DNA of 64,000 nt from Proteobacteria bacterium UBA5122 (lineage in GTDB: Bacteria > Pseudomonadota > Gammaproteobacteria > Tenderiales > Tenderiaceae), in contig DHYU01000071.1 in NCBI GenBank assembly GCA_002415485.1, positions 389 through 64,388 on the forward strand, read 5' to 3'. Each line of letters starts with the position of its first letter. The first letter of the stretch is position 1. The notes beneath the pieces are model-generated. The model worked only from the letters and a program-made list of their open reading frames with translations. It did not search any database and was not told the DNA's origin. Below are positions 46,529-64,000 of the stretch, piece after piece. A program made the translations under genes and the position numbers.

Positions 46529-47653
46529 ATGCGTAAGGTCATAAATCAGCTCGCCCTCCAGCAAGCCCTTGAAGAGCTAGGCTGGACTCAATCCAAACTA
46601 GCCGAAAAAGTAGGTGTTTCTGCCCAGTCAGTTACAAATTGGATGCAAGGAGAAGGCTTTCCGCGTCCAGCAACTTTACTCAAACTTGCCACACTATTGC
46701 GCCTGAATTTTGAGCAACTAGTACAAACGGAAGAAAAAGATCGTCCTGTTGTTGCCTTTAGAAAAAAGGGCAATGCAAAAACTACCGAAATTCACATTAA
46801 TAAAGCCTCTGAAATTGGCATGCTGCTCAAACCTCTGGTGCCATATCTGCCAGAAATGCTAGCACTACGCACCCTGATCACCTCACCATCAACGGAATAC
46901 AGCAAACTGCAAACTGCCGTATCCCAAACTCGTGCTCGACTTGGCATAGGCGACCATGCCGTACTACGGTATGAACAATTGATCGGTGAATTTGCCGACA
47001 GTGGCGCCATACTGATTCCGGTATTGTGGGGAAACAAAGGCAACCATGAAAACGCCATGCACATCCGCCTGCCCGCGGAAGATATCACCTTCATCTTTGT
47101 GAACCTGGACACCCGCGTCGAAGACTTTAAATTCTGGATGGCACATGAGCTGGCTCATGTCTTCACCCCTGATTTAGCGGGCACCATCGAAGGGGAAGAT
47201 TACGCCGATGCCTTCGCCGGTTCGTTGCTATTTCCACGCGCCTGTGCTGAATCCGCCTATGCCGAAGCCAGCCGCAAACGTAGCACCAAGGGAGAGATTG
47301 AAGCATTACTTCATCATGCTCACAGCCACAGTATATCGCTCAACACGGTATACCAGCGCGTCAAAGAATTTGCTTCCTTCGCAAAGCTACCCGCATTGCG
47401 CGTGGATGATCGCGCCATTCATATGGTACGTAACAGCATCACAGGCCCTCTTGTCAGTGAAGCACTGTTTGACCCCATGCCGCCAAGTCCTCAACAGTTC
47501 ATTGCCAACGCAGAGAACAACTTCCGCTCCAGTTTCTTCCAGGCACTAAAGCAGATGATTTTGGATAAAGGTACAGAAGCGGGCTATTTACAACAGATAC
47601 TCGACCTCTCCATTGGCGATGCCCAGGCACTGCATGAGGAAATGACTCATTGA
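46529..47653 (+). CDS. XRE-family HTH fused to ImmA/IrrE (COG2856/DUF955) zinc metallopeptidase domain
   Basis: N-terminal HTH (WTQSKLAEKVGVSAQSVTNWMQG) and an HExxH motif (WMAHELAHVF). Lies in a visibly lower-GC stretch. Confidence 0.8.
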   Translation: MRKVINQLALQQALEELGWTQSKLAEKVGVSAQSVTNWMQGEGFPRPATLLKLATLLRLNFEQLVQTEEKDRPVVAFRKKGNAKTTEIHINKASEIGMLLKPLVPYLPEMLALRTLITSPSTEYSKLQTAVSQTRARLGIGDHAVLRYEQLIGEFADSGAILIPVLWGNKGNHENAMHIRLPAEDITFIFVNLDTRVEDFKFWMAHELAHVFTPDLAGTIEGEDYADAFAGSLLFPRACAESAYAEASRKRSTKGEIEALLHHAHSHSISLNTVYQRVKEFASFAKLPALRVDDRAIHMVRNSITGPLVSEALFDPMPPSPQQFIANAENNFRSSFFQALKQMILDKGTEAGYLQQILDLSIGDAQALHEEMTH

Positions 47654-54655: not shown

Positions 54656-54662
54656 GGTTATA

Positions 54663-54708
54663 TGGCGCGCCCGAGAGGATTCGAACCTCTGACCTCAGCC
54701 TCCGGAGT
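54663..54708 (-). tRNA. 3' fragment (about 45 nt) of tRNA-Arg(CCG); not an intact gene, likely an island att repeat
   Basis: Minus strand reads CTCCGGAGGCTGAGGTCAGAGGTTCGAATCCTCTCGGGCGCGCCA: anticodon loop (CCG), variable loop, T-arm and 3' acceptor plus CCA, very close to E. coli argX. The 5' acceptor, D-arm and 5' strand of the anticodon stem are absent. Confidence 0.8.
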
Positions 54709-54959
54709 GGGTTAAAAGACATTTATCAAACAAGTACATACATTTCATCTTGTTGATTTTATTGCCTATTGACCGCCATTCAGAATTACAAAACACCACC
54801 AAAAACCGCTCGCAGTGTCCCAAATTTGTCCCAACATTTCAGCCTCGCAAACCGCCACTTAATCTGGAAATTCTTCAGTGTCGAGAAATATTAAAGGGCT
54901 GACCTTTGGCGCCCAATCCACTAGCGTTGGCACCGTACTACAACGAATGGTGTTTGACG

Positions 54960-55190
54960 ATGATGGATCAATATTACTCCGATAACGAGCTTGCCGATCT
55001 GCTGGGCATTTCGCTTTCGCGCTTGCGTGGCAAGATCTACCAGGGCGAGCCTCTACCTGCACGCATCCAGGTGCCCGGCAGCCGCACCCGGCTATGGCGC
55101 AAGCAGGATGTGCATGACTGGCTGGCGCAGTTTCGTACCGAAGACAGCCTGTTTGAGACGACGCGCCACGGCCGCAAGCTCAAGCGATGA
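54960..55190 (+). CDS. Small HTH DNA-binding protein (AlpA/MerR-like)
   Basis: SDNELADLLGISLSRLRGKIYQG...RLWRKQDVHDWL. ATG preferred to the TTG at 54906. Its stop overlaps the repA ATG (ATGA). Confidence 0.6.
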   Translation: MMDQYYSDNELADLLGISLSRLRGKIYQGEPLPARIQVPGSRTRLWRKQDVHDWLAQFRTEDSLFETTRHGRKLKR

Positions 55191-56056
55191 AGAAGCGTAG
55201 CTTTGACTATCTCTTCCACATCGCCGAACAGATCCAGCAACACAGTGCACTGCAAGCCGACAAGATCGCCTTTATCCCGCGCCTGATGGCAGGCACCTCC
55301 CTGCCGGTGCGCAAGCAGGAGGACAACGAGTTCATCCGCCGCAATGGCCGCCGTACCCTGAGCATGATCGCCAGCCGCGAGATCGGCCTGCCCTATGGTG
55401 CGATGCCGCGCCTGGCGCTCTGTACCATCACCACGCTGTGCAAACAGAGCCAGTCCCGCACCATTTTCCTCGGCAGTAGCGCACGGGCCTTTCTTGGGCA
55501 GATGGACAAGCGTTGCAGTGGCGGTAGCAATGGCTCACTGACCCATGCCCGTGATCAACTGAAGCGACTGCTAAGCTGCACCATCCAGATCACCGAAGAG
55601 TCTGACCAGCACTGGCGCATGGACTCACTGCGCCTGTCGCAAAGCGCCACTCTGTTATGGCAACCCTGCGCTCCGCAGCGCTGGCAAGCCCAGCTCACGT
55701 TGAGCGAGGAGTTCTATCAACACATCCAGCAGTTCGCCATTCCGGTGGACCTGCGCGTACTGCATGCCTGCGCCCACTATCCGCTGGCCATGGATCTCTA
55801 TGGCTGGCTCACCTATCGCTACTTCAGCCTGCGCCGCCCTACCCTCATCGAGTGGCGGGAGCTGATGCTTCAGTTCGGCAATCACTATCAGCGCGAGTCG
55901 CACTTCAAAGCCCACTTCCACCATGCTCTGGAACGAGTCGCGCTGTTCTATCCCCAGGCATTCTTTTTACTTCAGCCCAACGGACTTCTGCTCCTGCCTA
56001 GCCAGACACATATCCCGCCCAGGGATCTCAATCGCTTTCTCAAGCACGGTGCATAA
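55187..56056 (+). CDS. repA: Plasmid-type replication initiator RepA
   Basis: LPYGAMPRLALCTITT, PLAMDLYGWLTYR, W.ELMLQFG..Y and a terminal LLLLPS...IPP follow the layout I recall for plasmid/ICE RepA initiators. Iterons follow directly. Confidence 0.7.
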   Translation: MKKRSFDYLFHIAEQIQQHSALQADKIAFIPRLMAGTSLPVRKQEDNEFIRRNGRRTLSMIASREIGLPYGAMPRLALCTITTLCKQSQSRTIFLGSSARAFLGQMDKRCSGGSNGSLTHARDQLKRLLSCTIQITEESDQHWRMDSLRLSQSATLLWQPCAPQRWQAQLTLSEEFYQHIQQFAIPVDLRVLHACAHYPLAMDLYGWLTYRYFSLRRPTLIEWRELMLQFGNHYQRESHFKAHFHHALERVALFYPQAFFLLQPNGLLLLPSQTHIPPRDLNRFLKHGA

Positions 56057-56074: not shown

Positions 56075-56378
56075 TTATCCACGCATATAAGGTGACAACG
56101 GCTGCGCATACAAGGTGGTCAATGTGCGCATATAAGGTAACGCTTTGCGCATAAAAGGTGGCACAAGTGAGCATATAAGGTGGTGCGCAACCGCCGCCAG
56201 ACCTTGTGTATCAAGGCTTTCAAAGCTTCTCCTATAAGCCCTTTAAAGAGATAAAAATAATCTTCAGTTATTTGCGGCAGCAATTCGGTGGATAACCTTT
56301 GTCGGGCGGCGTTACCCACAGGGTCCACCGCCTGATCTGCTTGAGTGAGGAGCCATCAGCCCGTGGACTTGTGGATAA
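56075..56378. other. oriV-like region: DnaA boxes, iterons and an AT-rich tract
   Basis: TTATCCACg (56075-56083), the iterons, an AT-rich tract at 56243-56274, gGTGGATAA (56087-56095 of the 562xx line, i.e. 56287-56295), and a perfect TGTGGATAA (56370-56378). Confidence 0.65.
56081..56183 (+). repeat. Five iterons (consensus GCGCATATAAGGTGG) at 21-22 bp spacing
   Basis: Copies start near 56081, 56104, 56126, 56147 and 56169, i.e. two helical turns apart. Confidence 0.85.
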
Positions 56379-56396: not shown

Positions 56397-56771
56397 TCAG
56401 GTTGGTCGCTTGATTGGCCTTCCTTGCTTCAATTTGCCGCTCTCACCCGTGGGTCTGAGCCAGGGGCCTTGCAGCAGCGGCAACCAGTGTTCATCTGTTT
56501 GCAGTGCAAACACCAACAGACGCACCGTCAGCCAGTGGCGATAACGAGTACCTAGCGTGAGTGTTTTGGTCTGTTCGGTCAGATACCACCGTAGATGCTT
56601 GGCCTGCCATTGATACGGGCCCACCTGCCAGCGCCGCCAGATGCTCTCGGCGATTAGTTCGGCGCGTTGTAGATGGGCTTTTACCGTTCCGCGCCTTGAT
56701 CCGGGCAGACGCCTTACCAGAAGATCACGGGCAATACGGGCCGCTTGGTGTTGATTGGCGGGGTTGGCCAT
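56397..56771 (-). CDS. Hypothetical basic protein (124 aa)
   Basis: Start overlaps the stop of the upstream integrase-like gene (TGATG); no recognised family. Confidence 0.4.
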   Translation of the reverse strand: MANPANQHQAARIARDLLVRRLPGSRRGTVKAHLQRAELIAESIWRRWQVGPYQWQAKHLRWYLTEQTKTLTLGTRYRHWLTVRLLVFALQTDEHWLPLLQGPWLRPTGESGKLKQGRPIKRPT

Positions 56772-57721
56772 CAGCGCGCACTCCCCACGTAGGCCGACAC
56801 CACATCCACCCGGCCATGCCCCAACTCTGAAGAGATGATTTCGCGGGCGGTAAGATCACTCTCCCTCTCCGCGAGGCGTTCACCGCTGATGACCGGGGCA
56901 GGGGAGCCGGTCAGCTGTTCGTAACGCTCACAGGCATAGGCGGCACGCAGATCATGAAAGCCCTTTAATTCATGATCCGGCGCCACCTGCGACCAGGCAT
57001 GGTAGGCGTGGTCACGCCACTGGGCATAGCTGCTCTCAGCCGGGATCAGATTGCGCCCGTCGCCCTGCAACTCGACGGCCCTTTCCAGTGCCATCGTGGC
57101 CGGTTCGCTCACCGGTACCCAGCGATCCACCAGATGGCCCCGACCGCCCTTTGTGCCGTCGGTGATATTCACCGCCCCCTTTTCGGCGACCTGTGCCAAT
57201 GCGGCACGGGCATCGAGCAGCGAGGCCTCGCGAAAGCGCAGCCCCAGCGCCCGAGCCAGTTCGGCCACTGATGCCACTCGATCCTCACCGCGCTCCCGCA
57301 ATTCAGCGGTGGCCCGTTGCAGGCGCTCGCGCTCCATCCCTGCCGGAGCCTCCTGGCGCACACTACTACGCTCCCCCACCAGATCGGAGGGGGAGACACG
57401 CAGCTGCGTATCACCCCGCATGGTCTCCAGGACCACATTGACCGACGACAGCAGGTTCTGTGCGTAACTCACCGCCATCTCACCCGCCTCAACCCGCTGT
57501 TGCAGTGACTCACCGTAGGCGGTGACCAATGCTTCAGTCACCTGGCGCACATCTCGCACCTCCTGATCACGGGCATAGTCGCAGAACTGCTGCCAACGCT
57601 CGCTGTGCGCTGCCTGAGTCCCATAGTGTCCATCACCGTAACGATCCGCCAAGGCATTCTTGCCCGCCCAGGCCATCTGCTTGCCATAACCAAAGTTACG
57701 CTCTCCACCCATCTTGCCCAT
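56771..57721 (-). CDS. Integrase-domain (tyrosine-recombinase-like) protein
   Basis: Candidate catalytic residues in order: LRFREASLL (R), TKGGRGH (K), FHDLRAAYA (HxxR), ELGHGRVDVVSAYV (H, Y). Resembles the Integrase_1-type family as recalled. Confidence 0.55.
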   Translation of the reverse strand: MGKMGGERNFGYGKQMAWAGKNALADRYGDGHYGTQAAHSERWQQFCDYARDQEVRDVRQVTEALVTAYGESLQQRVEAGEMAVSYAQNLLSSVNVVLETMRGDTQLRVSPSDLVGERSSVRQEAPAGMERERLQRATAELRERGEDRVASVAELARALGLRFREASLLDARAALAQVAEKGAVNITDGTKGGRGHLVDRWVPVSEPATMALERAVELQGDGRNLIPAESSYAQWRDHAYHAWSQVAPDHELKGFHDLRAAYACERYEQLTGSPAPVISGERLAERESDLTAREIISSELGHGRVDVVSAYVGSAR

Positions 57722-58374
57722 CTGCTTACCTTCAAGCTGTTAAGTGTTAAACCGGATAGAGCGCCGGTCGCGCTTGGGTCATTCCCCATGACCAGGGGCC
57801 GCACGGCAGCGGCAGGGCAGTTCACTCCCGAAGGCACGGCACCTCTGCACGGTCTGCATTGCACAGATCGCAGGTCAGGTGCTGGCTGTTGCAGGGCCAG
57901 GCCCTGTCGCCGCATTCGGGGGTTTTGCATCGACGCACTGCGCCAGAAAAGCCTTGATTGATAGGACGTTGCGCCAGTTTCCGGACGCCCGTCTCTGTGG
58001 ACGGCTACGCCGCCCAACAAAGACGGGCGCAGCATGACAACTGCAACAGGCACGCAAATAGCCTGGCGCAGTCCACTAAAGGCAGCCATGGTGGCCGGGG
58101 TGAATCAGACTCGAAAGGGAAGTGGAAGAGGGCTCGCAGCCAAACGGCTGAGCACCGCAAAGCGAGCCTGGGCGGTGCAAGGGGCCGATTGCTCGGCAAG
58201 GGAATCTCCAATTGACCGTGGCGATGGCGGGTAGTGCAGAAGATAATTTAGCAGTGAATTATTTCGTTAACTCCTGGAGTAACGCGATCTTTGAGGACAC
58301 TATTGCCCATGAATTTGGAACCTGGCAGCGCCTCAGCCTCCATAAGACTGGGATATTCTGTTAAATCTAACTCT

Positions 58375-59229
58375 CTATTCGTCAGACGGCGGCAACGTCT
58401 TCGTGGTTTTAGCCAATTTCTTCTCTTCTGACTTAACCCGGCGATCCAGTTTCTTAAGATCCTCCTCAGCGGCCAACTTTTCCGGCTGAATACCCCGCTG
58501 ACCTAACATATCGCGCACGCTGACATTATTTTGCACATGCTCATCGGTAATCGCACGCTCCCCCTGCAAATTGGCCTGTTGTACGTTATGGTTGGTCATT
58601 TCCGTGGCTAGATTTTTGGCAGCAATGGTCAGAGTGGGCAGAAAATCAGCCAGTGGGCGGCTTCTAACGATGCCATACCTATCCTTCATCGCCTGGGTAG
58701 TATGCCCACCAAACAGGGCTTGATCCCCCTTGGAGCGGATACGCCCAAAACCAGCATCATCCACCCCCCTCTCATAGATATTCTGTGACAGGGCTTTTTC
58801 CGACTCCTTCAGCCGCTCCCGCGCTTCCATCCGGGCCTGGAGCTGCATGCGATCCTCAATCAGCTCCTGCTTGCGGGTTTGCAGGGCAAAATAGCTTTGG
58901 GCGAAGGCGATTTCAGGCTTGCGAGGGTCACCATTCTGGGCAATCAGGTAGCAGGCGTAGCGGGTGAGCATAAAATCATCAACTGGGCGCTGCCCACCTT
59001 TGCCTACCTCGATCATTTTCGTGACGCCACGAAAATGATCCGAAGCCTTGTGGCCACTGGCCTCGCAGGATTCCATCGCCCGGTTGATCGCAGTCTGAAA
59101 GTTCTCCCAACGTGCATAACCGAGGGGGGCTTGCAGGTCTCGTGCAAACCAGAATTCGATACCCTCGGTGTCCGCTCGTTGTACCGCGGCCTCGAGACTT
59201 TGCTGCAGAGCCTGTAATTGTTTATCCAT
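58375..59229 (-). CDS. dinD: DNA-damage-inducible protein D
   Basis: IEFWFARDLQAPLGYARWENFQTAINRAMESCEASGH...DHF and LTRYACYLIAQNGDPRKPEIAFAQSYFALQTRKQEL run parallel to E. coli DinD. Confidence 0.8.
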   Translation of the reverse strand: MDKQLQALQQSLEAAVQRADTEGIEFWFARDLQAPLGYARWENFQTAINRAMESCEASGHKASDHFRGVTKMIEVGKGGQRPVDDFMLTRYACYLIAQNGDPRKPEIAFAQSYFALQTRKQELIEDRMQLQARMEARERLKESEKALSQNIYERGVDDAGFGRIRSKGDQALFGGHTTQAMKDRYGIVRSRPLADFLPTLTIAAKNLATEMTNHNVQQANLQGERAITDEHVQNNVSVRDMLGQRGIQPEKLAAEEDLKKLDRRVKSEEKKLAKTTKTLPPSDE

Positions 59230-59261: not shown

Positions 59262-62200
59262 TTAAGACCTAAGCCCTGAGCCCTTACCCTGCAACACCAC
59301 GGCCCGATACAGCATCTCGATCATGCCTTTCTGAAAATGCTCATCTGAAAAGAAACTACGGTATAAATCCAAATCCTTACGGCGCTCTTTGTTAATTGCT
59401 GACTGCACAATCTTTTCAAAGGCCAGCCGTTGATTCTGACTATCACTATTATCCAGCACTTGGCTCTGAAATGATGGATCTGCCTCGATGTGTTTACGCA
59501 GATTAATCACCTTTACGCGCTTCTCTTCATCAGTCCCTTCCCAGCCAGCAAAGAAGCGATCATTAAACACTCGGATAATCTCATCCAGCGGATCGCGTTC
59601 ATCCTCGCCTCGCTTACCACGTGGTTCTGGGTTCTGCGGATCGACCTCTGTTTCGGAATCATCCAGCCCAATGGTGACATTGAGCTTTACTCGTTCCAAA
59701 CCATAGGTCGATAAATCAACGCTATTGAGCAGCTCATCCAGTTTATCCTGATCGGGGTCTTGCACCTTGAGCTTGGGGATCAAAAACTTCAGGAACCAGT
59801 GCAACATCTCCCATGCAACATTATTAAATGGAATGATGCAGGCAACCTGGGCATAGATCTTAACGAACTGTTTGGCCTTGATCTTGTAATCGATCTTTTC
59901 ATCTTCTTCCAGATCCTTATCGAACCGTTCTACCACCCCGTCAATAATCGGATGCAGCGTATCCGCATCGGCGCTGTTAAAAAACAGCTCATTGAATTGC
60001 TGTACTTCCGACCAATCATAGATACCCACATCATCCAGCGCGTCCTTGAGATCATGCAACACATTCACATCGGTCGGCTGACTTAAAGAGGTAGAAGTAT
60101 AAAAAACATCAAAGGCTGTTTTTATCTCTTCCACAGAATTATGGAAATCCAGCACAAAGGTATCTTTCTTATCCAGCTTGTCATTGCAGCGGTTCAAGCG
60201 CGACAATGTCTGAACCGCCAAAACACCCTGAAGCTTTTTATCCACATACATCGTATGCAACTTGGGCTGATCAAAGCCGGTGAGAAACTTATTCGCCACC
60301 ACCAACAACTTGTAATCATCGCTATCGAATTGCTCTGGAATATCTGCACCAGGAAATCCATTCAGACTGTCTTCTGTATGCTCAACTCCCTTCACCATCT
60401 TCTTGCCGGTAAACGCTACAACCGCCTTAAACGGTGCGTTCACCTCTTGCAGGGCATCACGAATGGCAAAGAAATAATGGATTGCAGATTCGATGTTACG
60501 CGTTACCACCATCGCCTTAGCCTTACCCTTGAGCTTCTTGGCCTGGTAGACCTGCTGCATAAAGTGATCGACCATAATGCGCGCCTTCACTTCGATGGTT
60601 TCCGGGTGCGCTTCGACAAATGCCCGCAGTTTTTTCTGCGCCTTACCGGTTTCAAACTCGGGGTTATCCTCCACCGACTTCTGTAACTCGTAATAACTTT
60701 TATAGGTGGTGTAGTTCGCCAGCACATCGAGGATAAAACCCTCCTCAATGGCCTGCTTCATGGAATAGAGATGAAAGGGATAAAACTTACCGTCGTCAGC
60801 CTGGTGGCCGAACTTCTCCAACGTCGTATTCTTAGGTGTCGCGGTAAAGGCAAAGAATGATGCGTTATCACCTGCACGTCGGGCATCTATGGCCTGGTTG
60901 ATCTGCTCCTGAATATCCTCCGGCTCTTCATCTGCGCTATTGCCACCACCCAGGGCCGACGCCATCGCTCCAGCCAAGCCCGTGCTTTTATCTTGCGAAG
61001 AGTGAGCCTCATCGATGATCACCGCAAACTTGCGATCAGATAGATCCGCAACACCATCCACAATCACCCGAAACTTCTGGATCGTAGTAATGATCAAGCG
61101 CTTGCCGTTCTCCAGCGCCGCTTGCAGTTCCTGTGAGTTATAGGCATGGGCAACGATATTTCTCACCTCAGAGAACGAACGAATATTGTCTTTCAGCTGC
61201 TTATCCAGCACCCGCCTATCCGTCACCACAATCACCGAATCAAAAATGTTTTTTGTACCACTCGGGTCATAGAGCTCGATCAACTGATAAGCCAACCAGG
61301 TAATGGAGTTGGACTTACCCGAGCCTGCGGAATGCTGGATCAAATATTTCTGCCCCGGCCCACTCTGTTTGGCCTGGGCCAACAGGCGACGCACCACCTC
61401 CATCTGGTGATAACGAGGGAAGTACAAGGTCTTCTTCACCTTGCCGGTTTTCTTGTCCTTCTCTTCAGTGAGCTTGGCAAAGTGCTCAATGATATTGGTC
61501 AGGCTCAGGCGCCCCAGCACCTCCTCCCACAGATAGGCCGTTTTATAACCATTGGGGTTCGGTGGATTACCCTTGCCGTGATTATTGCCTTTGTTGAAGG
61601 GCAGGAAATAGGTCTTATTGCCATCCAACTTCGTCGTCATCCACGCCTCATCGGTGTCGACAGCAAAATGGACCAGGCAACGCCCAAACTGAAACAACGG
61701 TTCCTTGGGGTCGCGATCCTTCATGTACTGTTGTTTGGCGTGGTAGGTGGTTTGGCCCGTCCAGGGATTCTTCAGCTCAAAGGTCGCCAGGGCCAGACCA
61801 TTGATAAACAGCACCATATCGACTGACTTATAGGGGTCACTGGCAGAGTAATGAATCTGGCGTGCCAAAGAAAAGATATTGGCATTGAAGTTCACCACCA
61901 CCTCAGGGTTGAGGTCATTGTAGGGTTGGCGATAGAGCAGGGTGAATTGGGCATCATCGATGGCAATGCCCTTCTTCAATACCGAGAGCACACCGTCTTT
62001 TTTGATCTTGCGATCCAGCCGCTCCAGAATCAGCCGCTGCCAGCTGGGGCGATCTCGCAGTTTGTTTAACTCGTCAGCCTGGGTAGATTCGAGGAAACGC
62101 CAAAAGGCCTCTTTATCGATGGCGAATTCAGTATCGAAATTGGCCGGATCAGCAAACTCATAACCCGTTGCCACCCTCACCCCATAGCTGGGCGCATCCG

Positions 62201-62303
62201 GCTCCGCCGCCCGCCGCTCTTCCAGCGAACTGCCGACTAACGCCTTTTCTATATGGGCCTCCAGCGCGGCCTCATTGGTTTGACTGACCATCCCTACCCC
62301 CAA
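59262..62303 (-). CDS. hsdR: Type I restriction endonuclease subunit R
   Basis: N-terminal nuclease region, helicase motif I (QHSAGSGKSNSITW), DEAH box (VIIDEAHSSQ), and motif VI region (LSRLNR). About 1010 aa. Confidence 0.92.
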   Translation of the reverse strand: MGVGMVSQTNEAALEAHIEKALVGSSLEERRAAEPDAPSYGVRVATGYEFADPANFDTEFAIDKEAFWRFLESTQADELNKLRDRPSWQRLILERLDRKIKKDGVLSVLKKGIAIDDAQFTLLYRQPYNDLNPEVVVNFNANIFSLARQIHYSASDPYKSVDMVLFINGLALATFELKNPWTGQTTYHAKQQYMKDRDPKEPLFQFGRCLVHFAVDTDEAWMTTKLDGNKTYFLPFNKGNNHGKGNPPNPNGYKTAYLWEEVLGRLSLTNIIEHFAKLTEEKDKKTGKVKKTLYFPRYHQMEVVRRLLAQAKQSGPGQKYLIQHSAGSGKSNSITWLAYQLIELYDPSGTKNIFDSVIVVTDRRVLDKQLKDNIRSFSEVRNIVAHAYNSQELQAALENGKRLIITTIQKFRVIVDGVADLSDRKFAVIIDEAHSSQDKSTGLAGAMASALGGGNSADEEPEDIQEQINQAIDARRAGDNASFFAFTATPKNTTLEKFGHQADDGKFYPFHLYSMKQAIEEGFILDVLANYTTYKSYYELQKSVEDNPEFETGKAQKKLRAFVEAHPETIEVKARIMVDHFMQQVYQAKKLKGKAKAMVVTRNIESAIHYFFAIRDALQEVNAPFKAVVAFTGKKMVKGVEHTEDSLNGFPGADIPEQFDSDDYKLLVVANKFLTGFDQPKLHTMYVDKKLQGVLAVQTLSRLNRCNDKLDKKDTFVLDFHNSVEEIKTAFDVFYTSTSLSQPTDVNVLHDLKDALDDVGIYDWSEVQQFNELFFNSADADTLHPIIDGVVERFDKDLEEDEKIDYKIKAKQFVKIYAQVACIIPFNNVAWEMLHWFLKFLIPKLKVQDPDQDKLDELLNSVDLSTYGLERVKLNVTIGLDDSETEVDPQNPEPRGKRGEDERDPLDEIIRVFNDRFFAGWEGTDEEKRVKVINLRKHIEADPSFQSQVLDNSDSQNQRLAFEKIVQSAINKERRKDLDLYRSFFSDEHFQKGMIEMLYRAVVLQGKGSGLRS

Positions 62304-62410
62304 ATTGTTGTTATATCCCTCCCATCAGGATGGGCATGTGGCGCCCCAACAGCCATGGAGAGACAAATGGAGACTGTTTCTCAGATCACACTCCACTAGC
62401 CATGGCTAAA

Positions 62411-63442
62411 TCAAAGCCATTGTTGTGTCTGCAAGCGCTCAAAAGCTTTATGAATATGCTTGGGCTGCATCAGTTTGGCCTTACGTGCATTCCAGGCTTG
62501 CACCTTGGCAACGGCGGTATCGCTATCAGTGGCCGCTTCATGGTTTGCCACCCAATGCACCGAGGCCAGCAGCTCCATGCCATAAGGGGTTTCAAACCCC
62601 TCGATCAAGGCCTTAACCTGAGCCAGGCGCGCCGCCGCATCGGCATCTTCCGCCAAAAAGGCATCCGCTTGAGCAACGGCATCCGGCATCAAATGAATCT
62701 GGGCATCTTTGCCACGGCTGCGATCCCCATAACCGCGAATGAAGTGGCCTTCTATCCGCTGCAACACATGGTTCAGATTTTCCGCGTAAGGGCCAAAAAT
62801 GTGCTTCTTATACCCCAAGCGCAGCTCCTCCCCCGCCTCCTGCAGGAAGTAACCCAATTTTTGAACCTCCAACAGACTCAGGCGATACCCCGGCAGGCTG
62901 TATTGCTCGATCAGCTTGATAAACAGCGCCCGCGCCCGCGTCATCGCAGGTGCCTTGGTGGCGACAGGCATGGCATCCACTGCCGGAGCAGGCTGGGGGC
63001 CATAAACAAAGGCCTCTACCTCTGGCAGTTGCTCGAAGGCCTGCTCAATCAATGGCTGTACATCAGCCCAATCCAGCCCGCCATTGCCGCAGCCCAGCGG
63101 AGGAATAGCGATAGATTTGATCTGCTTTTCACGAATCACGCGCACCAGATCCACCAGGCCCTGCTCAACATGCTCAAGGCGGGATTTGGCCTTCCAATGG
63201 GTTTTGGTCGGAAAATTAATGATGAACCGGGGGTTTACCAGATCCCGCCGCTCAAACACAAACATACGTCCGGGCTGAACCTCGGCGGCGTTGCACGCCT
63301 TGGCATACACAGCGAAATTTTCAGGAAAGGCCTGTTTAAACTGCAAGGCAATGCCCTTGCCCATCACCCCAACACAGTTCACTGTATTGATGATGGCCTC
63401 AACATTCGCCTCTAATAGATTGCCTTTGGAATAGTGAATCAT
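62411..63442 (-). CDS. darG: DarG antitoxin (N-terminal macrodomain plus C-terminal DarT-binding domain)
   Basis: Macrodomain GNLLEANVEAIINTVNCVGVMGKGIALQFK...IAIPPLGCGNGGL. Lies 3 nt downstream of the DUF4433 gene. Confidence 0.85.
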   Translation of the reverse strand: MIHYSKGNLLEANVEAIINTVNCVGVMGKGIALQFKQAFPENFAVYAKACNAAEVQPGRMFVFERRDLVNPRFIINFPTKTHWKAKSRLEHVEQGLVDLVRVIREKQIKSIAIPPLGCGNGGLDWADVQPLIEQAFEQLPEVEAFVYGPQPAPAVDAMPVATKAPAMTRARALFIKLIEQYSLPGYRLSLLEVQKLGYFLQEAGEELRLGYKKHIFGPYAENLNHVLQRIEGHFIRGYGDRSRGKDAQIHLMPDAVAQADAFLAEDADAAARLAQVKALIEGFETPYGMELLASVHWVANHEAATDSDTAVAKVQAWNARKAKLMQPKHIHKAFERLQTQQWL

Positions 63443-63445
63443 CGT

Positions 63446-64000
63446 TTAATAATACCAGCGAGGTAGCACTTTTACCTTAACTTCATGAGTCAACCCGCTC
63501 GCCACCAGGGCCGCCTCAACCTTAATCTTAGTCGCCTCCGTTTTGACCCCAATACCCACCATCATCCCCCACGGTGCCATTTCGTAAATCAAGAACTCGG
63601 CCTGACGCCGCCGCGAACGATCCGGGTCATCATCATTGGCAAACCAATACCTCGCAACCAACACATCCCAGTCCACCTCATCCAGATGAGAAAGGTCATC
63701 ATAAAAATCCGTAAAATCCCGTGTCGCGTGGCCATCGGTAAAGACAAACGGCAACCCCATCTCCGTCACCTTGGCCGCAGTGCTCACCAGATAGATCACC
63801 GGCTCCTGCCCCTGTTCATACCCTGCCACACTTCCTTTATGAATGGCATACAGCATCGGTGATTTACGCCCCAGATAAAACGGCGCGTAATCATGCAGAC
63901 ACCCACCGGGGCCGCACGGCACCGGCTTGGTATGACGGCGCGCTTGAATCGTCTCATGGGAGATATCGATATAACTTCCCGGCGGCACCCGATTATTCGC
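63446..64000 (-). CDS. darT: DarT DNA ADP-ribosyltransferase toxin (DUF4433), N-terminus outside window
   Basis: GGCLHDYAPFYLGRKSPMLYAI, LPFVFTDGHA, RRQAEFLIYE and terminal LPRWYY parallel Thermus/Mycobacterium DarT as recalled. The frame stays open to the window edge, so the track's start at 63988 (a GTG codon) is not the real start. Confidence 0.85.
   Translation of the reverse strand, partial: ANNRVPPGSYIDISHETIQARRHTKPVPCGPGGCLHDYAPFYLGRKSPMLYAIHKGSVAGYEQGQEPVIYLVSTAAKVTEMGLPFVFTDGHATRDFTDFYDDLSHLDEVDWDVLVARYWFANDDDPDRSRRRQAEFLIYEMAPWGMMVGIGVKTEATKIKVEAALVASGLTHEVKVKVLPRWYY

Follow-up and report, generated by a model that had tools for sequence, protein, structure and literature searches.

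The minus strand at the high-coordinate end of a 64,000-nucleotide (nt) stretch of contig DHYU01000071.1 from Proteobacteria bacterium UBA5122 (the whole stretch is called the window in the following) carries, between positions 58375 and 64000, four consecutive open reading frames (ORFs) that correspond to darT, darG, hsdR and a dinD-like gene. The initial annotation had placed a DarT/DarG toxin-antitoxin (TA) system next to the hsdR gene of a type I restriction-modification (R-M) system on one strand, and all three genes were recovered in the minus-strand ORFs with the motifs quoted for them and with significant family matches, whose E-values exclude chance similarity. Together with sequence obtained beyond the window edge, the analysis revealed that the DarT/DarG pair is intact-looking and is flanked by the hsdS and hsdR genes of a type I R-M operon carried by a genomic island. 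The features of this region within the window, with protein lengths in amino acids (aa), are as follows.

63446..64000, minus strand: darT, 3' 184 codons (Pfam PF14487, PADLOC DarT)
62411..63442, minus strand: darG, 343 aa (NCBIfam antitoxin_DarG, PADLOC DarG)
62292..62410, minus strand: darG-hsdR intergenic region, 119 nt (sequence)
59262..62291, minus strand: hsdR, 1009 aa, type I restriction endonuclease/translocase subunit (Pfam domains, PADLOC REase_I)
58375..59229, minus strand: dinD-like gene with Bro-N domain, PADLOC PDC-S13 (NCBIfam, PADLOC, PHROG)

Within the window, darT forms an open frame of 184 codons from 63446 to the edge, which contains CLHDYAPFYLGRKSPMLYAI, FVFTDGHA and QAEFLIYE and matches the Pfam DarT family PF14487 (E 3.3e-51, 174 bits, cut-off 22.5) as well as the PADLOC DarT model (E 2.3e-60). 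As the PF14487 match begins at profile position 30, the N-terminus is cut by the window, and darT indeed runs off its edge as first described. An exact look-up of DarG yielded five contigs, among them contig k127_591556 of the European Nucleotide Archive (ENA) metagenome ERZ925377 (256,543 nt, hereafter L001), which is 100% identical to the window over all 11,590 compared nt and runs 1,720 nt past position 64000; the contig L002 of a UBA metagenome-assembled genome (MAG; GCA_002448895.1, uncultured gammaproteobacterium) is identical too. On L001 the complete DarT comprises 212/213 aa, with the gene start 84 nt past the window (virtual coordinate 64084), and the 213-aa protein scores 248.1 bits on NCBIfam toxin_DarT (cut-off 150). 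Alignment with the DarT of Thermus sp. 2.9 (PDB 7OMV, 43.9% identity) showed that equivalents of all nine residues considered, H13, T15, N19, R51, H65, Y71, M78, H119 and E160 in Thermus, are kept; the roles of these residues have been described (PMC9967889). The Glu of QAEFLIY aligns to position 160, which is mutated (E160A) in the crystal. The complete toxin also has the N-terminal NAD-binding segment YHITH..., so that neither the catalytic Glu nor the N-terminal domain, whose loss would have spoken against the initial annotation, is missing. The nearest DarT among 80 fetched DarG loci is 54% identical.

The antitoxin DarG (343 aa) reaches 482.6 bits on NCBIfam antitoxin_DarG (cut-off 250) and matches the PADLOC DarG model with E 1.3e-138. 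Its predicted layout consists of an N-terminal macrodomain, a putative ADP-ribosyl-DNA glycohydrolase, followed by a C-terminal DarT-binding domain. The macrodomain matches Pfam Macro (E 1.3e-24), aligns with the DarG macrodomains of Mycobacterium tuberculosis and Thermus aquaticus (5M3I, E 1.2e-57; 5M31, E 2.7e-56) and retains N22, K29, K80, H82, W83 and G119, with the motif FPTK(80)THW aligned to FPTKKHW of the T. aquaticus and M. tuberculosis proteins. The roles of N22, K29, G119 and the catalytic K80 have been reported (PMC5179494). Residues 187-337 match the DarG C-terminal domain (chain B) of the M. tuberculosis DarT-DarG complex 7YK3 (E 4.5e-27). A macrodomain antitoxin defines DarTG2, the thymidine-specific subclass (PMC11543638), and because the antitoxin found here is a macrodomain protein and not a NADAR protein, the pair is, as judged from its sequence, a member of the DarTG2 (thymidine-type) subfamily. 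DarTG1 (DarT1-NADAR) is likewise a two-gene TA system for phage defence with a DarT-fold toxin that ADP-ribosylates single-stranded DNA (PMC11543638); however, it carries a NADAR antitoxin and modifies guanosine, whereas the macrodomain with K80 observed here means that the pair is not DarTG1. The gene order, toxin then antitoxin, is that of the structurally characterized DarTG systems of Thermus (T. aquaticus, sp. 2.9) and M. tuberculosis (7OMV, 5M31, 5M3I, 7YK3), while the sequence reported here is diverged from these and stems from an uncultured gammaproteobacterium.

Downstream of darG, two start codons are conceivable for hsdR. With a TTG start the gene spans 59262-62303 and the gap to darG is 107 nt, as originally given; with an ATG start, shifted by 12 nt, it spans 59262-62291, encodes 1009 aa and leaves 119 nt. 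The ATG at 62291 is more likely, since a 57%-identical homologue also begins with MVS..., and the distance was revised accordingly. HsdR passes the Pfam cut-offs for HSDR_N, SWI2_SNF2, ResIII and T1R_D3-like domains, matches PADLOC REase_I (E 1.7e-39), and contains the motifs D...ELK, GSGKS, DEAH, TATP and QxxSRxNR. Similarity to the HsdR of EcoR124I is distant (E 2.5e-12); the nuclease motif D...ELK and the DEAH box align between the two, while the present protein is full length compared with its homologues and can be aligned end to end with the HsdR of the related locus L085 at 57% identity.

The initial annotation had also expected hsdM and hsdS just past position 64000. On L001, hsdS is complete (294-1637, 447 aa, Methylase_S match above the Pfam cut-off) and lies directly upstream of darT, whereas hsdM is partial, its last 44 codons (…EISFNKYFYRHKPLRSMEEV…) being found further upstream at 1-135. 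The expectation thus holds for hsdS and for the 3' end of hsdM. HsdS shares 31% identity with the HsdS of L085; blocks at its N-terminus, centre and C-terminus are conserved, and two target-recognition regions are variable. The 44-codon hsdM end matches HsdM C-termini with E-values down to 2.4e-14, the relatives being named 'type I restriction enzyme M protein' at the Joint Genome Institute (JGI). Its own C-terminus (…AEILEVEHV*) is shorter than that of homologues (…AEILGVxVxxVxGxxHD*). The rest of this hsdM was not recovered by any of four routes: the five contigs from the DarG look-up reach only 105-207 nt into hsdM from its 3' end, the 44-aa fragment as query gave other terminal fragments alone, an exact 44-nt scan of JGI metagenomes gave four related loci, none of them identical, and a 428-aa HsdM fragment of the same family used as query gave thousands of homologues, none with this C-terminus. 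The 44-aa query hit 91 similar terminal fragments of HsdM (P0001-P0091, 46-77 aa) in numerous metagenomes. Assemblies thus seem to break systematically where conserved hsdM meets variable hsdS.

The junctions between the genes are tight. The TGA stop of hsdS overlaps the darT ATG by 1 nt (TGATG), darT and darG are separated by 3 nt (TAA ACG ATG), exactly as first noted, and 32 nt lie between hsdR and the dinD-like gene on the same strand. A consensus scan for promoters and terminators found no terminator-like site at any junction and no sigma-70-like promoter in the darG-hsdR gap, a scan that is uninformative either way as promoter-like sites were fewer than in shuffled sequence. In loci of the same R-M family, cargo gene and hsdR share 11 nt (L085) or are 59 nt apart (L083), and this closeness fits read-through transcription. 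We infer that hsdS, darT, darG, hsdR and dinD are co-transcribed.

One junction differs. The interval from the stop of hsdM to the start of hsdS is occupied exactly by a nested inverted-repeat element of ~160 nt, similar to miniature inverted-repeat transposable elements (MITEs) or repetitive extragenic palindromic (REP) sequences (L001 128-293; virtual ~65428-65593), which as RNA folds at -88 kcal/mol (z -4.7). The element is bordered by the near-repeat GGAGGTGG(AG/CA)CATG, which supplies the ribosome-binding site and start codon of hsdS. Four related loci lack such an insertion, and their hsdM and hsdS genes overlap by ATGA. Gene callers place a 57-aa ORF, probably spurious, within the element.

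To place the arrangement among its relatives, we compared 80 loci of GTDB species representatives that encode the closest DarG relatives, 41 of which have flanks of 5 kb or more upstream and 3 kb or more downstream. HsdM upstream together with HsdR downstream on the same strand was found in seven of the 41 well-flanked loci and at least one R-M component in nine. A Pfam scan of the nearest neighbours agrees with these counts: of 63 upstream neighbours 9 carry Methylase_S, and of 56 downstream neighbours 7-9 carry HSDR_N or ResIII. The occurrence of DarTG in type I R-M loci, given as 'often' in the initial annotation, amounts to ~17-22% of related loci. The complete genome of Methylomonas sp. 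TEB (L005) shows the order HTH_17-integrase-hsdM-hsdS-darT-darG-hsdR-YgjP/M48-like, which is the order of the RRDM island of enteropathogenic Escherichia coli (EPEC). The closest DarG homologue (83% identical; L003 4295-11032, Thiotrichaceae MAG NORP103) has no adjacent DarT; it is preceded by a RhuM-family gene and, further upstream, by genes resembling type III R-M (N6_N4 methylase, DUF559, ResIII helicase), and is apparently an orphan DarG in another R-M context. L004, L014, L043 and L044 are likewise without detectable DarT.

The four JGI contigs that have the 44-nt hsdM 3' stretch in common belong to the same R-M family (HsdR 57% identical), and none of the four carries DarTG. The hsdS-hsdR slot is instead occupied by a Fic/DOC protein in L085 (1760-2845), by a YhcG/DUF1016 PDDEXK nuclease in L083 (10814-11881) and by a truncated copy of this nuclease in L086 (1871-2278). 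Such Fic- and YhcG-like cargo matches the published description of the hsdS-hsdR site as a potential hotspot (PMC12255303) and the case of PrrC in EcoprrI.

The architecture hsdM-hsdS-darT-darG-hsdR is already known. Jankevicius et al. noted the DarTG-in-R-M arrangement in 2016 and suggested that insertion of the TA system may stabilise the type I R-M locus (PMC5179494), and in 2025 the RRDM island of EPEC E2348/69 (rptR-hsdM-hsdS-darT2-darG2-hsdR-M48 peptidase) was reported to protect against phage (PMC12255303). The locus described here resembles this island in having DarTG2 with a macrodomain antitoxin between hsdS and hsdR on one strand within horizontally acquired DNA, and in the order hsdM-hsdS-darT-darG-hsdR, here with a partial hsdM. 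In contrast, hsdR is followed by an M48 peptidase gene in EPEC and by a dinD-like (PDC-S13, Bro-N) gene here, and the 160-nt structured insertion between hsdM and hsdS is a further difference; the available sequence ends inside hsdM, short of the place that rptR takes in EPEC. At the DNA level, a comparison with E. coli genomes, intended to reach the EPEC island, gave no match. The prr locus offers a second parallel, as the suicide effector PrrC lies inside the type IC EcoprrI hsd operon and delivers a 'second strike' if restriction fails (PMC1484252). However, PrrC is a tRNA(Lys) nuclease that is silenced by bound R-M proteins and triggered by T4 Stp (PMC1484252), whereas DarT ADP-ribosylates DNA and is kept silent by an antitoxin of its own, and a control of DarT by HsdMSR is without support here.

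The dinD-like protein encoded after hsdR matches the NCBIfam model for DNA damage-inducible protein D (375.5 bits, cut-off 242), the PADLOC candidate defence gene PDC-S13 (E 2.9e-118) and phrog_8036 (E 1.6e-84). It also matches the first 276 of 717 positions of the PADLOC type I specificity-subunit model PDLC03083 (E 1.7e-46), which implies that DinD-like domains are fused to HsdS elsewhere. DinD of E. coli is an inhibitor of RecA. The 80 related DarG loci yielded no dinD homologue, and a relationship between DinD and the RhuM protein beside the closest DarG homologue was considered and rejected, as similarity was absent. After dinD the consensus scan detected no terminator, and the 653 nt that separate the dinD stop from an integrase-like gene (57722-58374; G+C content (GC) 0.58) contain no family-assigned gene.

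Further towards low coordinates the window contains the following features.

54656..54707, minus strand: tRNA-Arg 3' fragment, 52 nt, anticodon loop to CCA (identity to E. coli tRNA-Arg)
54906-55190, plus strand: HTH_17 gene, AlpA/excisionase-like (Pfam; PHROG excisionase-like match)
55187-56056, plus strand: RepA_C gene (Pfam)
56082-56184: iteron-like 22-nt direct repeats, 4.7 copies (tandem-repeat search)
56397-56771, minus strand: ORF of 124 aa, no function assigned
56771-57721, minus strand: Integrase_1 (PF12835)-like gene (Pfam)

The operon had been attributed to a tRNA-Arg island. ARAGORN and Rfam detected no tRNA gene anywhere in the 64-kb window. The 52-nt fragment, however, shares 88.5% identity with the 3'-terminal 52 nt of the tRNA-Arg that is annotated in all 5,426 E. 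coli genomes; it runs from the anticodon loop (…CUCCGGA…) to the terminal CCA. A stem-loop with a T-run comes next, and core genes lie beyond it. The fragment probably represents the displaced att repeat that marks the low-coordinate island end. A second copy was not found in the window or in the 1.7-kb extension, and the intact tRNA-Arg and the other island end would lie past hsdM, off the contig. The designation 'tRNA-Arg island' is thus plausible and rests on the fragment. Between the att fragment and dinD lie the excisionase-like HTH_17 gene, RepA_C, the iteron-like repeats, the 124-aa ORF and the PF12835 integrase-like gene; no tyrosine-recombinase gene (PF00589) is in view. The position of the iteron-like repeats directly 3' of the RepA_C gene suggests a plasmid-type replication origin within the integrated island. 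At a permissive threshold, Rfam gave two matches between 54 and 64 kb, both at chance level. Base composition, considered as a sign of foreign origin of darTG, was uninformative (genes 0.49-0.55 GC, window 0.556). About 7 kb from the island end, in what is presumed to be core sequence, 46529-47653 (plus strand) encodes a 374-aa protein with an N-terminal XRE-type helix-turn-helix (HTH) domain and an ImmA/IrrE-type HExxH motif (AHELAHV), which matches phrog_2439 (transcriptional regulator, E 2.5e-21).

From these data we conclude with high, though not complete, confidence that the region represents the distal two thirds of a composite operon directed against phages, hsdM-(160-nt insertion)-hsdS-darT-darG-hsdR-dinD, which is located on a mosaic island at the 3' end of a tRNA-Arg gene and combines restriction with a DarTG2 layer. 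The identities and order of the genes, their overlapping or near-abutting junctions, the presence of all known catalytic residues and the recurrence of the architecture elsewhere support this assignment directly. Four observations weigh against it. Around 80% of the related DarTG loci lie outside R-M operons, so that the linkage is not obligatory; HsdR remains under the TIGR00348 cut-off (213 vs 284.55 bits); hsdM is visible as 44 C-terminal codons alone, with all five locus-bearing contigs ending there; and the 160-nt insertion could lower the expression of hsdS-darTG-hsdR.

From the families to which the proteins belong we infer the enzymatic activities and an anti-phage function in the source organism, with the operon transcribed as a unit. 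The type I enzyme, composed of the HsdM2S1 methylase and HsdR, would methylate the DNA of the host and cleave incoming DNA that lacks the modification, and DarTG2 would form a second layer beside restriction. DarT is predicted to transfer ADP-ribose from NAD+ to the N3 of thymidine in single-stranded DNA, which would block replication, while DarG would restrain DarT in two ways, its C-terminal domain binding the toxin and its macrodomain stripping the adduct by means of the catalytic K80. Phage infection may then free DarT, so that viral single-stranded DNA would be ADP-ribosylated and the infection aborted. The gene for DinD/PDC-S13, which has the same transcriptional direction, is a third candidate defence gene.

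A different role for the same genes would be that DarTG serves mainly as an addiction (stabilisation) module, keeping the R-M operon and the island from being lost, and not as an abortive-infection layer. The discoverers of DarTG themselves proposed such a stabilising effect of the TA insertion on a type I R-M locus (PMC5179494), and the locus described here belongs to a mobile island that carries RepA_C, iteron-like repeats and genes resembling excisionases and integrases. Direct phage protection has, however, been reported for DarTG2 systems and for the whole EPEC RRDM island (PMC12255303, PMC11543638), and the same slot in related loci holds single effectors that are not TA systems (Fic, YhcG-like nuclease), which fits a slot for defence cargo better. 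We therefore regard a mainly stabilising role as possible but distinctly less probable than defence, and the two roles of DarTG are not mutually exclusive.

Restriction might alternatively have decayed or been silenced, through truncation or disruption of hsdM or through uncoupling of hsdS by the inserted repeat element, leaving DarTG as the sole working part or the locus as a relic. That every assembly stops inside the hsdM 3' end, and that the HsdM C-terminus is shorter than in homologues and is followed by the 160-nt insertion, would agree with such decay. But the open frames of hsdS, darT, darG, hsdR and dinD all have their full length and intact motifs, the near-repeat bordering the element provides hsdS with its ribosome-binding site and start codon, and contig breaks at the hsdM 3' end are common (91 terminal fragments), which points to an assembly effect and not to gene damage. 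This makes decay of the restriction part unlikely.

Within the composite defence operon, the relation between the R-M enzyme and its cargo may be closer than neighbourhood. It is conceivable, although we consider it rather improbable, that the hsdS-hsdR junction of this R-M family is an exchangeable slot for latent toxic effectors to which the R-M complex, and perhaps the DinD-like protein, is functionally coupled; blocked restriction would then, for example, release or potentiate DarT, as EcoprrI does with PrrC. The alternative is simple co-location. Finally, that DarTG acts in endogenous growth or replication control and merely hitch-hikes at its R-M position appears very unlikely: M. tuberculosis DarT is described as governing replication and stationary-phase adaptation (PMC12170906), and the ~80% of related DarTG loci outside R-M systems would suit this idea, but the horizontally acquired island, the defence operon and the PADLOC candidate defence neighbour fit defence cargo, and the translational coupling to hsdS argues against an incidental position.

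Overall, the locus adds an environmental gammaproteobacterial case to the known layered defence operons that combine restriction with abortive infection, and opens no new question. For annotation, its value lies in calling DarTG2, type I R-M and PDC-S13 together at this island, with hsdS and hsdM just off the window. Taken with its relatives, the locus indicates that the hsdS-hsdR junction of one type I R-M family accepts differing toxic cargo genes.

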